Source: a virus (taxonomy: Duplodnaviria; Heunggongvirae; Uroviricota; Caudoviricetes). Taken from it: a DNA stretch of 24,770 bases. Within the stretch, counting starts at the first letter, position 1; every line of letters starts with the position of its first letter. The notes beneath the pieces are model-generated. The model was given only the letters and a program-made list of their open reading frames with translations. It was not told the origin of the DNA and searched no databases. Made by a program: the position numbers and the translations under genes. Positions 1-17,958 of this stretch are shown here, piece after piece. The stretch lies in IMG/VR virus record IMGVR_UViG_2671180298_000004; one strand, written 5' to 3'.

Positions 1-1284
1 TTACAGACTTCTGGAAGGTTGCGCAGCTCTTACAACACGCGGTTGATCTTCCGCAGCGTCTTCCAGCGCACTTAAATCACGGTCTTTCACCTCTGGCATT
101 TTCAGCGCAGAGATTAAACCAATCACTGAATATGCCATGATCATAATGGCGATCGGATACCAGGATTCCGTCATGGTGCAGAAAATACCCGCCAGGATAG
201 GACCAAAACCGGAAGCGATAAGACCACCAATTTCTTTAGAAATAGCCATCCGGGTAAAGCGGTTTTTACAGCCGAACATTTCTGCCATGGTAATGTTTTC
301 CAGAGCAAATAATCCCAGCACCGCACAGTTATGAATCACAATCAGTGCAACCATAATGGTGCTCGGGGCATAGCTTTTATCTACAATGATAGAAAGCATT
401 GGCCATGCCAGCACAATCGCGGAGGTATTCATAATAATATACGGGATCCGGCGACCAATTTTATCGGATAACCAACCAAGGAACGGAATGGTCATAAAGC
501 CGAGAATCGAACTGATCATCAATGCATCTGTTGGAATTGCTTTGTTAAACAATAACGTCTGCACTAAATAGCCTGCAAGGAAAGTCTGAATTAACCCGGA
601 GTTACCCGCCTGACCAAAACGCAGCCCTGTTGCCAGCCAGAAGGATTTGCTCTGGAACATGCTACCAGCAGGTGCAGGTTTTGCTGTCGGTTGGTTACTG
701 TCGTTAACCTTCTCAAAGACCGGGCTTTCTTTCAGATTCATACGCAACCAGATAGCAAAGACCATCACGACAACACTCGCCAGGAACGGTATACGCCATC
801 CCCACGCCAGCAGTTCCTCTTTACTGAGAATGAAGAACATAAAGGCCCAGATTGCCGTTGCGCTCAAGGTTCCGCAGTTAGTTCCCATAGCCACAAATGA
901 GGAGATAATTCCGCGCTTACCTTTTGGCGCATATTCCGCCAGCATCGTACCGGCACCGGAAATTTCCGCACCTGCACCCAACCCCTGAATAATACGCAAC
1001 GTCACCAGCAAGATGGGTGCAAAAACACCAATCTGTGCATAGGTCGGTAACACACCAATTAAGGTGGTACAGATCCCCATCATGGTGATGGTAATAAAGA
1101 GCTCTTTTTTACGCCCTATTCTGTCGCCCATTTTGCCGAAAATAAATGCTCCGACAATACGCGCCACATAACCTGCACCGTAGGTTCCCATTGCCAGAAT
1201 TAACGCCATTGCCGTTGATGATTCAGGAAAAAATATTTCATGAAACACTAACGCTGCGCCGAGCGAATATAACTGGAAATCCAT
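1..1284 (-). CDS. ydfJ: MFS transporter YdfJ (427-aa ORF; stop codon at window positions 1-3). The conserved G-x-x-D-R-x-G-R-K loop lies only ~55 aa from the start, so the N-terminus is probably truncated by the prophage junction.
   Basis: ORF track; multi-TM hydrophobic profile with MFS loop motif GKMGDRIGRKK; sequence recognised from memory as K-12 YdfJ. Confidence 0.85.
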   Translation of the reverse strand: MDFQLYSLGAALVFHEIFFPESSTAMALILAMGTYGAGYVARIVGAFIFGKMGDRIGRKKELFITITMMGICTTLIGVLPTYAQIGVFAPILLVTLRIIQGLGAGAEISGAGTMLAEYAPKGKRGIISSFVAMGTNCGTLSATAIWAFMFFILSKEELLAWGWRIPFLASVVVMVFAIWLRMNLKESPVFEKVNDSNQPTAKPAPAGSMFQSKSFWLATGLRFGQAGNSGLIQTFLAGYLVQTLLFNKAIPTDALMISSILGFMTIPFLGWLSDKIGRRIPYIIMNTSAIVLAWPMLSIIVDKSYAPSTIMVALIVIHNCAVLGLFALENITMAEMFGCKNRFTRMAISKEIGGLIASGFGPILAGIFCTMTESWYPIAIMIMAYSVIGLISALKMPEVKDRDLSALEDAAEDQPRVVRAAQPSRSL

Positions 1285-8439: not shown

Positions 8440-9463
<1,024 letters not shown>

Positions 9464-12664: not shown

Positions 12665-13714
12665 TTACGCCAGTACGCCAATTGTCAGCGCGCGATCGAT
12701 AAAACGAAATATCAGCTCCAGTTGGGAGCCATACTTATCTTCAAATGCCACTGTATCCGTATGCAGCTCGTTGTGATGCTTTCTGCACAAAGGCAACACA
12801 AAGAGATCATGTGCTTTTGTTCCCATTCCGCCCTGCCCGTGACCAATCAGATGATGCGGATCGTCGGCTGGCATACCGCAGCAAGCACACGGCTGTGTCT
12901 TAACCCAACGTGTGTATTTCTCCTTAACCCAGCGGCGACGTTTAGGCAGCTTCATGAAAGATTCCGGAGACTCTGGATCAACGGTGATGCTTACCACCGT
13001 CTTTTCCTGTGGTGATTTTTGTTGCTGGTGGGCGTAAGGCAACGGTGCAAGATTTTTTGTGCGTTGTTTCAATATGCTGGTGGCGGTCTGCTCTCCCGGT
13101 ACGATGTCGCTTTCGCGGTACACCGAGCAGATTTTTTCCGCTGGTAATCCCAGCGAACGACGCGATACAGCCTCAGGTAGTGCATCCACCACCTGATTGC
13201 AGACCGCCCACCAGGATAATTCAGCCAAAGATAATTCCCGCTCCTGCGTACCGCTTATTGCGTGACGGATGACGTCAATCACCCATGCTGTCAGATTTTG
13301 TTGAGCAAGCAGCTCCAGTGATTCCGATGTCTGGTCACGCAGTTGGTTGTCGCAGTGCCAGCACAACACCATTGCGCCGGTACCATAACGGTGAATGACT
13401 GTTTCAGTGTGATGGTAATCGCCATTAGGCCACTGGCAGGATGTAACATGACGTAATAGCCAGTCGGACAATGCGCCAACGCCGCCAGCAGCACGAATCA
13501 CCCGTTCGTTACTAAAAAACGGCAGCAATGTTTTGTCTTCCGCCAGCGGCTGGCGAACGGCAGGAACGACTCCGGATGGCAGATTACGCATGCTTTTTGG
13601 TTCCGGTTCCACCAGCACTCGAGGATTATGAAATATCTGTATGGATTCACGGCCCGGCTTAAGGACCACCAGCCCAAGCTCAGGCACCAGAACAGGTCTA
13701 AGTAATACCCGCAC
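12665..13714 (-). CDS. ydfU: YdfU (DUF968-type) protein, 349 aa from a GTG start; C-terminus carries an HNH-like CxxC ... HH ... H motif.
   Basis: ORF track; C-terminal CACCGMPADDPHHLIGHG ... CRKHHNELH; GTG start at 13714 gives the 349-aa length I recall for K-12. Confidence 0.75.
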   Translation of the reverse strand: MRVLLRPVLVPELGLVVLKPGRESIQIFHNPRVLVEPEPKSMRNLPSGVVPAVRQPLAEDKTLLPFFSNERVIRAAGGVGALSDWLLRHVTSCQWPNGDYHHTETVIHRYGTGAMVLCWHCDNQLRDQTSESLELLAQQNLTAWVIDVIRHAISGTQERELSLAELSWWAVCNQVVDALPEAVSRRSLGLPAEKICSVYRESDIVPGEQTATSILKQRTKNLAPLPYAHQQQKSPQEKTVVSITVDPESPESFMKLPKRRRWVKEKYTRWVKTQPCACCGMPADDPHHLIGHGQGGMGTKAHDLFVLPLCRKHHNELHTDTVAFEDKYGSQLELIFRFIDRALTIGVLA

Positions 13715-13715
13715 G

Positions 13716-13994
13716 TTACCTCCAGATCCGTTGCTGGAAAGTGCGGGACGCACGTGGTGGGCGTTCGGAATAAGGCAGCCTGACAGAGATTATCCAGTGC
13801 CGATAGTCGAGACTGAGAGCTTTCTTAACCTCGAACCCGCGCCTGCGGTAAGAATGAATCAGCCATTCGGCCTGTTCTGCAGTGCATGGAGGGTGCTGGA
13901 ACCATTCAGACTTGAATGCGTGAGAATACCGCCCGTGCGTGCAGGCAAGAACGGGCGAATTATCAGAATTGTAATATTTTGCGTTGCGTGCCAT
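13716..13994 (-). CDS. Hypothetical 92-aa protein translationally coupled to ydfU.
   Basis: GGAG Shine-Dalgarno 8 nt upstream of ATG 13994; stop TAA at 13716-13718 lies 1 nt before the ydfU GTG start. I cannot place this gene in my memory of the K-12 map. Confidence 0.55.
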   Translation of the reverse strand: MARNAKYYNSDNSPVLACTHGRYSHAFKSEWFQHPPCTAEQAEWLIHSYRRRGFEVKKALSLDYRHWIISVRLPYSERPPRASRTFQQRIWR

Positions 13995-14060
13995 CGGTTT
14001 TCTCCGGTGGCACGGTGTTACTCAGCGGGAGTTCAGCCCCGCGCAAGATTGTAGATGAGT

Positions 14061-14312
14061 TTATTCTCCTGAAAAAGCAGAAAAGCCAGCTTTTATTCCG
14101 ATCTCTTTCAATGCCTGTAATGAAGTGACAAACTCACCTTCGCGCAAGATAAATCCGTCCGTGACCCGAGCATCCACAAAATTAATTAACGCAGCCCCAT
14201 TCTTTCGCAAACACATAATGCGGTAATGACTAACAAGATTTCCATTTTCAACGCACACAGCATAGAGGCCATCTTCACAAAAAATTTTACGCAGTTCTTC
14301 GATGTTCATCAT
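14061..14312 (-). CDS. rem: Rem-like protein (83 aa) upstream of nothing else before the hokD terminator; own promoter likely.
   Basis: GGAAGGA Shine-Dalgarno 5 nt upstream of ATG 14312; length matches the 83 aa I recall for Rem; name assigned by size and position, not by remembered sequence. Confidence 0.55.
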   Translation of the reverse strand: MMNIEELRKIFCEDGLYAVCVENGNLVSHYRIMCLRKNGAALINFVDARVTDGFILREGEFVTSLQALKEIGIKAGFSAFSGE

Positions 14313-14430: not shown

Positions 14431-14460
14431 AATAAAAACAAAAACCCGCCGAAGCGGGTT
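14431..14460 (-). terminator. Intrinsic terminator of the relB-relE-hokD operon (AACCCGC-TTCG-GCGGGTT followed by a long T-run on the minus strand).
   Basis: 7-bp GC stem with tetraloop and TTTTGTTTTTATTTT 3' on the minus strand, 70 nt after the hokD stop. Confidence 0.75.
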
Positions 14461-14528
14461 AAGTGCGGGTGCGTTGAGGATGCCTGCCACATCAGAGGTG
14501 GCGAGGGATTTCTCCCCCGCCGGGTCTC

Positions 14529-16340: not shown

Positions 16341-17958
16341 CTGTAGTCACTTTTGTGGGGACAGTCCACAAAACTGCCAACTTCCGCTTCTTGCTCTTAG
16401 CGGACATTAGCATAGGCTATTTACCATAACGCCTCATTACGCGCACCGCCCAGACTGACTCAGCGCGTTTCTGGCATATCCCCGGTAAAACAAGTAACAA
16501 ACCACCCGAAAATGAACACCAGAAACGCGACTTAAGAATCTACCCTATGAATGGATATGCACTCAACCGAATCGATCTTGGTTTCAATCTTTTTTATCGG
16601 GATCAGGCTTCTTTTTAGGTAACTTCGGGGGCTTAACTTGCTGATGACTTTGCGTTCGGCGCGTAAGCCAGGGATGGTCAGCTTTAGGTTTAACATAGTA
16701 TTTTGAGCGTAAATCAATACGGGCATTATCCACTCGTTCATGGACACTCTTTTCATCATCCAGTGGTATAGGCTCCGGGCCATCAACATACTTTTCCCAG
16801 CCCAGCGCTTTCCCGTCATACAGAACGTTAATTTCACCGTCAAAGTTCTCGCATACAGTAACAACCGAATGCCTAAGTCGATATCCCCGGCCCTCACTGC
16901 GTACCTGAAACGCACTGCTTTTGTACTGGAAAGTGAGATTTTTAGACAGAACGCGCTTCGCCTGTAGGCTGAAGATATAACCCAGTTCCTCTTCAGAATG
17001 GTGCACATCAAGATGAGCATTATCAGTAGTACGAGGCGACGTAGCGAACCGGTTGTTATAGGCTTCAATAAAGGTCGGCAACCATGCATTTGCTGTTTCA
17101 ATATCACTGATATTCTGAAGCCGCATTTCTTTGACCAGCCTGTCCTGTAGTGTCTGATTGGCGCGCTCTACCCGCCCTTTTGCCTGCGGGCTGTTGGCAT
17201 GGATTGGCTCGATGCCCAGTGTCTTTATCGCACGAGTGAACTGGGTCAGCTCACCTTCCCGCTCTGGGTTATTTACCCTGAATATACTGTGTCTATCAGA
17301 GTAGAGAGCGAGCGGTACGCCATGATCATTAAGGTAACCCCGGAGGGTTTCCATGTAAGCCCGGGTTGTTTCAGCAGGCACAAAACGCAACGCCATCAAC
17401 GCACTGGTGGCATCATCAATGAAAACGATCAGTGTACATCTGGGGCCTCGATTTTCAAACCAGTCATGAGGTGAGCCATCAATCTGGATCAGTTCACCGT
17501 AAGATGGTCGTCGCATGCGGCGTTGATATATACGGGCAATTTTACGACGGCGTTCACGCCATAACCCCTCTTCTATCATCCACTTTCTGAGAGTTTCAAC
17601 GGATAAAGATAAACCGTGTATCTCGCGCAATTTTTCGCACGCAAACGTAGGTCCAAAATCAGCGTAACGGCCTTTGAGGAGTGAAATTACTGTTGCTCTG
17701 AATTCAGTAGAAAAGGAATTATTAGGACGCTTTCCACGTCGGTGGGAAACCAGACCAGAAGGCCCTTCATTTCTATACCGTTGCACCAGACGTTTAACCT
17801 GCCGAATAGAAATGCCAATGCGTGCCGCAGCTTGTTCCTGAATAATCTGAAGTCGGTGGAGTTCCTTATGACTCATCGTAACAGTCTCTTTGATCATGAA
17901 AAATCCCCCAGAGAATTGTCTGGGGACATTTTAGAATGGTTCAAAGGGGACATTACAG
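16341..17958 (-). mobile_element. Insertion sequence (~1.6 kb) carrying one DDE transposase gene; ends approximate, with imperfect terminal inverted repeats beginning CTGTA(G/A)T.
   Basis: Single 437-aa transposase ORF; candidate imperfect inverted repeats at 16341-16360 and 17939-17958; no clear target-site duplication found by eye. Confidence 0.45.
16584..17897 (-). CDS. DDE transposase (integrase-core / rve type with N-terminal HTH; IS481- or ISNCY-like), 437 aa.
   Basis: N-terminal HTH (IGISIRQVKRLVQRY); DDE core with ...IQIDGSPHDW..., ...IVFIDDATS... and ...QAKGRVERANQTLQD...; it is not the transposase of IS1, IS2, IS3, IS4, IS5, IS30, IS150 or IS186 as I recall them. Confidence 0.85.
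   Translation of the reverse strand: MIKETVTMSHKELHRLQIIQEQAAARIGISIRQVKRLVQRYRNEGPSGLVSHRRGKRPNNSFSTEFRATVISLLKGRYADFGPTFACEKLREIHGLSLSVETLRKWMIEEGLWRERRRKIARIYQRRMRRPSYGELIQIDGSPHDWFENRGPRCTLIVFIDDATSALMALRFVPAETTRAYMETLRGYLNDHGVPLALYSDRHSIFRVNNPEREGELTQFTRAIKTLGIEPIHANSPQAKGRVERANQTLQDRLVKEMRLQNISDIETANAWLPTFIEAYNNRFATSPRTTDNAHLDVHHSEEELGYIFSLQAKRVLSKNLTFQYKSSAFQVRSEGRGYRLRHSVVTVCENFDGEINVLYDGKALGWEKYVDGPEPIPLDDEKSVHERVDNARIDLRSKYYVKPKADHPWLTRRTQSHQQVKPPKLPKKKPDPDKKD

Follow-up and report, generated by a model that had tools for sequence, protein, structure and literature searches.

The closest described relatives of the gene considered here are found in temperate phages of the Enterobacterales, where PHROG 1212 (labelled function unknown in PHROGs), N15 Orf QD1, Gifsy-2 STM1021.1n and mEp237 gp51 are true homologues that share a basic core and a tail ending in tryptophan and are likewise encoded in the early-right recombination region. 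This family has already been catalogued, its Escherichia member also by PGAP as a hypothetical protein, and has never been studied; it is not a new kind of system. The gene itself is an open reading frame (ORF) of 92 codons located between rem and ydfU in the Caudoviricetes record IMGVR_UViG_2671180298_000004, whose 24,770 nucleotides (nt) are referred to below as the window. The 92-amino-acid (aa) product belongs to the PHROG 1212/N15 Orf QD1 family and differs from its short members by an extra disordered N-terminus of 25 residues. The Escherichia/Qin form also has its own Shine–Dalgarno (SD) sequence and a start hairpin, whereas the short forms overlap a DUF1367 or NinB gene through an ATGA, and it is fixed to a DUF968 gene (ydfU), in contrast to the NinG or YbcO genes that adjoin the short forms. 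The explanation that best accounts for the locus as a whole, at somewhat less than even confidence, is that the ORF encodes a real small basic protein, that its translation is coupled to that of ydfU, that the protein serves as an accessory of the phage recombination module, and that the pair is silent in K-12.

A second group of comparable proteins is formed by NinD, NinE, NinF and NinH of lambda, which have the same neighbourhood and size class as the 92-aa protein and no sequence relationship to it (hhalign probabilities of 0.1–0.3%). Lambda NinF occupies the equivalent slot just before the downstream nuclease gene (YbcO or NinG), and presumably so does NinE in DLP12, before the YbcO or NinG nuclease gene. 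Searches of the 92-aa protein gave no match in Pfam at E values up to 0.1 and none in NCBIfam. The first-pass annotation, prepared from the letters of the window, had placed the ORF in the nin-region position upstream of antiterminator Q without being able to name it, and both points agree with the present results: the ORF–ydfU pair lies directly upstream of ydfT, the Q antiterminator gene, and the product is not a named nin protein.

The window represents a cryptic lambdoid prophage of the Qin type in Escherichia coli and is 100% identical to strain CPE35 over its whole length, and the surroundings of the ORF are 100% identical to K-12 MG1655. The minus-strand gene order is relB-relE-hokD-rem, the 92-aa ORF, ydfU and ydfT. 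The product, which is exactly the 92-residue protein quoted in the first-pass annotation, has a mass of 11 kDa and is strongly basic (isoelectric point, pI, about 10). That annotation gave the feature a span of 13712–13994 and a GGAG SD; the SD is found on the minus strand as described (Table 1), and the ORF itself occupies 13716–13994, the extension to 13712 taking in the start codon of ydfU. The curated K-12 record NC_000913.3 holds no feature between ydfU (b1560) and rem (b1561), the RefSeq PGAP entry WP_012304870.1 is named 'hypothetical protein', and literature searches by RefSeq accession, K-12 coordinates or PHROG identifier found nothing relevant. The reference of E. coli K-12 is therefore without a selected gene, and adding the 92-aa ORF to it would be a small and concrete correction for the best-annotated bacterium.

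That the 92-codon ORF is a real protein-coding gene is almost certain. ORF size alone is uninformative, as 49 ORFs of 40 aa or longer fall wholly or partly within the surrounding 6.5 kb, and the argument is therefore carried by conservation and not by the existence of the ORF. The 241 loci with the long form of the gene were recovered from IMG/VR and GTDB genomes through similarity at the protein level, and only full-length matches were admitted (two degraded copies, L251 and L276, were seen and excluded). The frame is kept in every one of the 241, with lengths of only 279 or 273 nt. These loci comprise 102 distinct coding sequences, and out of the six frames that of the ORF is the only one open in all 102. 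The Nei–Gojobori ratio of nonsynonymous to synonymous divergence (dN/dS) is 0.21 over the whole ORF; by region it is 0.58 for residues 1–25, 0.12 for residues 26–72 and 0.07 for residues 73–92, with synonymous divergence (dS) of 0.38, 0.70 and 0.31, respectively. The reading frame is under purifying selection, and the N-terminal extension of 25 residues is disordered and weakly constrained. The uncharacterised gene announced by the first-pass annotation is thus really conserved, being neither poorly conserved nor out of frame in related prophages. With the ORF alone as query, blastn detects the gene at 8527 places in 4529 of the 5426 complete E. coli genomes, with up to eight copies per genome, and 'hypothetical protein' is the label of every E. 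coli match listed. About 83% of the complete E. coli genomes therefore carry this selected gene of 92 codons, frequently more than once, and its family extends to temperate phages across the Enterobacterales. One 91%-identical long-form copy (L246, JAGZPX010000007.1) lies on a contig binned in a metagenome-assembled genome of 'Veillonella parvula'; this is most likely a mis-binned contig of an E. coli prophage.

The match to PHROG 1212 is significant and covers the whole of the family profile: phrog_1212 matches residues 27–92 with an E value of 1.7e-35 over profile positions 1–66 of 66, and the reciprocal family profile recovers the 92-aa protein at 4.2e-33. The translated search that the first-pass annotation had called for reveals homologues across Enterobacterales phages. 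By tblastn against phage genomes, a short form of 66–68 aa matches residues 26–92 at 30–48% identity, and is carried by Gifsy-2 (STM1021.1n), mEp237 (gp51), Cronobacter phiES15 (gp17), Edwardsiella GF-2, Yersinia PY54 (ORF47), the N15-like Ravinvirus ('orf QD1') and phages of Klebsiella, Hafnia, Erwinia and Pantoea; the form of 90–92 aa was found by word-indexed search in Escherichia and Shigella only. An exhaustive profile search of 1.84 billion representatives yielded 107 family proteins, nearly all of them standalone and 60–70 aa long. The median pI of the family is 9.6. The fusion proteins among these matches (P0193, P0199, P0255 and others) resemble chimeras in which a frameshift or deletion has joined the gene to a neighbouring replication, YbcO or NinG gene, and were not accepted as evidence on domain architecture. 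The family profile scan of genome contigs made use of alignment A2.

The AlphaFold2 model computed on the family alignment has predicted confidence (pLDDT) above 90 at roughly residues 29–74, below 50 at residues 1–22 and low in the tail, and its predicted elements are a strand at 29–33, a helix at 39–52 and strands at 55–60 and 67–74. The sole significant structural match is N15 Orf QD1 (BFVD, E value 5e-4). In the broad alignment the conserved positions are W/F-F, a helix T..EA..L...Y..G, the segment K.L..D...W.V.V.LP and the tail motif PR..R.[YWF]Q[QN][RK].W[GR]. The conserved unit is a core of 66 residues made of a confidently predicted beta-alpha-beta-beta mini-domain and a basic tail ending in Trp. 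The scattered Cys and His residues to which the first-pass annotation drew attention are not conserved. The broad alignment contains no invariant Cys or His; H34 is variable, and C37, the only one kept among close relatives, is replaced by L, M, V or I in distant ones. A zinc-binding or Cys/His metal-site protein is not supported, as there are no conserved Cys/His ligands across the family. Two further candidates were discarded: a match to RNase LE in a sequence search of the PDB (E value 0.099) is at chance level, and a reading of the C-terminal tail as a clamp-binding or ClpX tag was dropped because its spacing misfits QL[SD]LF.

The 3' end of the ORF reads TGG AGG TAA C GTG, where the GTG at 13714–13712 is the annotated start of ydfU. 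The first-pass annotation had seen the stop one nucleotide before this start in the window; the arrangement TAA(C/T)GTG is invariant, and the longer sequence TGGAGGTAA(C/T)GTG is present in 241/241 loci. A similar junction, TGGGGGTGA-NN-ATG, stands at the equivalent place in most short-form loci, where it precedes NinG, YbcO or YbcO-like genes. The short form usually ends in TGG GGG TGA, after which a gap of 2 nt leads to the ATG that starts the next gene, and TGG GGG plays there the same SD role as TGG AGG in the long form. Where no gene lies close behind, as in PY54 (...MWK) and the N15-like phage (...IWV), the Trp is retained and the last residue differs. It thus seems that the last codon is determined by the ribosome-binding site of the next gene and that the protein itself accounts for the Trp.

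The spacing of one nucleotide depends on the start of ydfU being correctly placed, and three observations support this. YdfU aligns over its full length, from residue 1, with the 57%-identical mEp460 gp49 (MRVLLRPVLVPELG versus MRALLTPEIAPRMG); the variants in codons 2–9 of ydfU are nearly all synonymous across loci (AGA/CGA, TTA/TTG, CGG/CGA, CCT/CCG/CCC and GTT/GTG); and the alternative upstream in-frame GTG at 13753 is absent from most relatives. The spacing is thus real. In translationally coupled gene pairs of phages and operons, the features that recur are those seen between the ORF and ydfU: a gap of one nucleotide to a weak GTG, an SD embedded in the upstream ORF and an invariant junction. 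The difference is that the ORF–ydfU pair is known from sequence, and its predicted occluding hairpin lacks statistical support. It is likely that ydfU is translated mainly by ribosomes terminating on the small ORF, an estimate drawn from anatomy and conservation only. With such coupling, synthesis of the nuclease would require that of the small protein and would scale with it. At five loci (L204, L232, L170, L171 and L106), the same small gene and TAA-N-GTG are joined to an mEp460-type YdfU N-terminus (GTG AGA GCA TTA CTG ACA CCT GAA, that is MRALLTPE); therefore, the junction behaves as a mosaic recombination joint.

Table 1. Positions of the small gene, its signals and its immediate neighbours in the window
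Feature	Position	Strand	Description
92-aa coding sequence	13716..13994	minus	ATG 13994-13992, TAA 13718-13716
GGAG Shine–Dalgarno of the 92-aa ORF	14002..14005	minus	7 nt before ATG; GGAG or AGAG in the start contexts of 241 loci
Parts of the 92-aa protein	residues 1-25; 26-74; 75-92		disordered Escherichia-specific extension; beta-alpha-beta-beta core; basic tail ending IWR
Predicted start hairpin GUGCCA...UGGCAC	13987..14014	minus	ORF AUG in the 3' arm, SD in or next to the loop
Coupling junction TAA-C-GTG	13712..13718	minus	ORF stop, one base, ydfU start; TAA(C/T)GTG in 241/241 loci
GGAGG, Shine–Dalgarno of ydfU	13719..13723	minus	within the last two ORF codons TGG AGG (W91 R92), 4 nt before GTG
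Predicted local hairpin at the junction, -19 kcal/mol	13708..13747	minus	ydfU SD and GUG paired with ORF codons 83-88
ydfU, 349 aa, DUF968 His-Me finger (HNH-type) nuclease homologue	12665..13714	minus	downstream gene, probably coupled
rem, upstream neighbour in the K-12 type	14061..14312	minus	66-nt gap to the 92-aa ORF

The assignment of YdfU as a nuclease homologue is supported by its matches to DUF968 (PF06147; E value 2.6e-76, 255.9 bits against a cut-off of 27.8) and to phrog_96, 'HNH endonuclease' (E value 7e-171). The HNH-like CxxC...HH...H ending that had been read from the window is present as a C-terminal CACC...HH...H motif. DUF968 and YbcO have been placed in one His-Me finger group, group 7 for DUF968 (PMC5714182), and in DUF968 proteins of Gram-positive phages an Orf-like DNA-binding domain is combined with the HNH motif (PMC4118853). 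A further conserved motif, C..WP..D.H...(LC)WHCDNQLRDQ, lies at about residues 100–125 of YdfU (window 13300–13420, minus strand) and is common to mEp460 gp49. It falls outside the Pfam DUF968 match, residues 1–160 being covered by no Pfam family, and judging from its sequence it may be a second metal-binding element.

The beginning of the ORF also has features that could bear on its expression. The hairpin predicted across the start codon folds better than shuffled sequences (z = -2.7) and is kept in 46 distinct upstream variants, including that of E. albertii, which has a different loop, with 99.4% of cells paired; double changes occur at two of the pairs, in a single lineage only. From this predicted structure, the hairpin may limit initiation on the ORF. 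Quantitative reverse-transcription PCR (qRT-PCR) and microarray data place the termination zone upstream of ydfU among the strongest Rho-dependent terminators (PMC9160355), while rem hardly changes in Rho/NusG mutants (supplementary table, PMC9160355). The mRNA strand of the ORF contains more C than G, and that of rem more G than C. The 'leader' on which Rho acts would then largely be the 92-aa coding sequence. The 346-nt 'intergenic leader' of ydfU that was studied as a Rho termination zone is mostly coding, so that translation and Rho would compete there, and therefore this terminator is to be read differently. In the cryptic prophage of K-12, the ORF–ydfU pair is probably silenced by Rho-dependent termination in this C-rich stretch.

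The genomic neighbours of the two forms differ in kind. A YdfU homologue, with 47–99% identity to that of K-12, lies directly downstream in 237 of the 238 long-form loci with enough sequence, and is usually followed by rusA or Q. Upstream, the long form is preceded by rem (about 112 loci), hokD (about 56), a lipoprotein-like gene (about 12) or others. In the long form, then, the gene on the 3' side is constant and that on the 5' side varies, and rem is not part of the cassette. The G+C content of rem is 38–47% and that of its neighbours 50–58%, and where hokD adjoins the ORF the gap is about 170 nt; rem looks like an inserted moron. The short form typically starts by an ATGA overlap with the stop of the upstream gene, which is DUF1367 (PF07105), NinB/YbcN in phiES15 and some metagenomic contigs, or an RdgC-like gene in PY54. 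Of 32 short-form loci, about 18 continue with NinG, about 9 with YbcO (PF07102) and 3 with a gene for a 93-aa YbcO/DUF968-like HNH protein. In the N15-like phage, a gene for an Rv2179c-like (DEDDh-type) exonuclease follows 23 nt on.

On account of this position, its charge and its conserved tail, the small protein is possibly an accessory of the phage recombination module that binds nucleic acid or docks to the nuclease. The proposed module would begin with an Orf/YbcN, DUF1367 or RdgC gene, with the small gene next and a nuclease gene of the NinG, YbcO or DUF968 type after it. The folded core would act as a docking domain and the basic, Trp-ended tail as an effector peptide, and the protein would be an optional helper, neither an obligate subunit nor an antidote. 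A more specific extension of this model, which is rather unlikely as it stands, regards PHROG 1212 as an unrecognised component of lambdoid and N15-like recombination modules, namely an adaptor co-translated with NinG, YbcO or DUF968, whose tail, on branched or single-stranded DNA, would target or tune the nuclease or connect it with the Orf/DUF1367/RdgC mediator or with a host factor. If the accessory role is true, a missing player would be added to lambdoid recombination, a system that has long been studied; if it is false, the 92-aa protein would be one more small phage protein of unassigned role.

Several observations weigh against this explanation, some of them at the junction and others in the distribution of the genes. 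The initiation region of ydfU has a predicted pairing of 0.66, compared with 0.63 ± 0.10 in controls with shuffled upstream sequence, and the junction hairpin shows only C-to-U wobble changes and no compensatory ones; as it does no better than shuffled controls, this hairpin was rejected as proof of coupling and counts as weak evidence. In divergent members of the family, the next gene is Ren-like, PerC-like or unrecognised, and NinG lies one to three genes further on. A profile search found no family member in the early-right regions of SfV and mEp460, despite their 57%-identical YdfU homologues, and in both phages the DUF968 nuclease comes after a KilA-N gene. Similarly, 186 phage records contain YdfU homologues and only about 20 of these carry the long-form small gene. 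Therefore, the association is asymmetric: in almost every case the small gene lies right next to a recombination nuclease gene, and the nucleases do not need the small gene. The co-occurrence with DUF968 genes that the first-pass annotation proposed to examine thus holds in one direction, from the long form to YdfU, and the link is not obligate in the other. The idea of a nuclease modulator, hinted at in that annotation, is weakened accordingly and stands as a hypothesis. As YdfU homologues occur without the small gene and divergent members precede non-nuclease genes, the adjacency could be inherited gene order with no functional link.

This last consideration leads to the strongest of the alternatives, in which the small protein acts independently of the neighbouring nuclease, for example as a C-terminal peptide modulating a host protein or as a small regulator, and in which its adjacency to nucleases reflects nin-region gene order and mosaic joints. 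An independent role would fit a downstream gene that varies among four nuclease families and some non-nuclease genes, as well as an upstream neighbour that is also variable (Rem, HokD, lipoprotein-like, DUF1367, NinB or RdgC). The existence of YdfU homologues without the small gene would fit it too, and the conserved tail motif resembles a short linear docking peptide. What makes it somewhat unlikely is that the 1–2-nt stop/start junction and the embedded downstream SD are kept across different nuclease families, and that the gene is found inside the recombination/nuclease block at nearly every locus and not elsewhere in the phage genome.

The proximity to a nuclease gene also recalls nuclease–immunity pairs, such as colicin DNases and their Im proteins, and toxin–antitoxin pairs, in which, as here, a small gene abuts an HNH-type nuclease gene. 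In that sense, the small protein could inhibit the His-Me finger nuclease encoded downstream or serve as its antidote, as the toxicity test proposed in the first-pass annotation implies: the upstream position and the coupling would make the protector first, and three of the downstream partner families (DUF968, YbcO and NinG) are HNH/His-Me type nucleases (PMC5714182). Unlike the small partners in those pairs, the 92-aa protein is basic and not acidic, both in itself and by the family median, it is not obligate, since close relatives of the nuclease occur without it in the viable phages SfV and mEp460, and the same small family is paired with several non-homologous downstream genes. For these reasons an inhibitor or antidote role is unlikely, with little probability left to it, and the PADLOC defence models give no match for the 92-aa protein. 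The label 'toxin to Rem', which phage record ON470583 gives to the small gene and which would point the same way as an antidote role, was not used, as no supporting paper was found.

It could also be argued that translation of the ORF is all that matters, by bringing ribosomes to ydfU and shielding the transcript from Rho, and that the peptide itself has no function. An invariant coupling junction, a C-rich and Rho-sensitive region and a hairpin across the start codon of the ORF would all suit such a leader, and dS in the long-form tail (0.31) is lower than in the core (0.70), which suggests an extra constraint at the RNA level. A pure leader role is disfavoured, and very unlikely, because selection clearly acts on the amino-acid sequence (core dN/dS of 0.12); in addition, the confidently folded domain and the tail motif are kept across genera with saturated synonymous sites, and the Trp is kept where no gene follows closely, in PY54 and the N15-like phage. 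Finally, although the K-12 reference leaves the region without annotation and an antisense ORF of 137 aa does exist in the window (13641–14054, plus strand), a chance ORF or a true coding strand on the antisense side is extremely improbable and is ruled out by the conservation data, given that the antisense frame is open in 22 of the 102 distinct sequences against all 102 for the sense frame, that dN/dS is low and that homologues are spread over the Enterobacterales.

Some minor observations concern other parts of the prophage. The genes dicA and dicC of K-12 Qin are absent from the window. The 3' end of hokD (window 14439–14520, minus strand) gives a sub-threshold match to the Rfam family isrK, an Hfq-binding small RNA, with 25 bits against a gathering score of 50 and an E value of 0.007, and this match overlaps a terminator-like hairpin at 14443–14460. 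Further upstream, an uninterrupted ORF of 437 aa for an ISNCY-type transposase occupies 16584–17897 on the minus strand; its last 49 codons, in frame and with the same stop, are ydfW in K-12 and PGAP, and PGAP describes the rest as a truncated transposase pseudogene.

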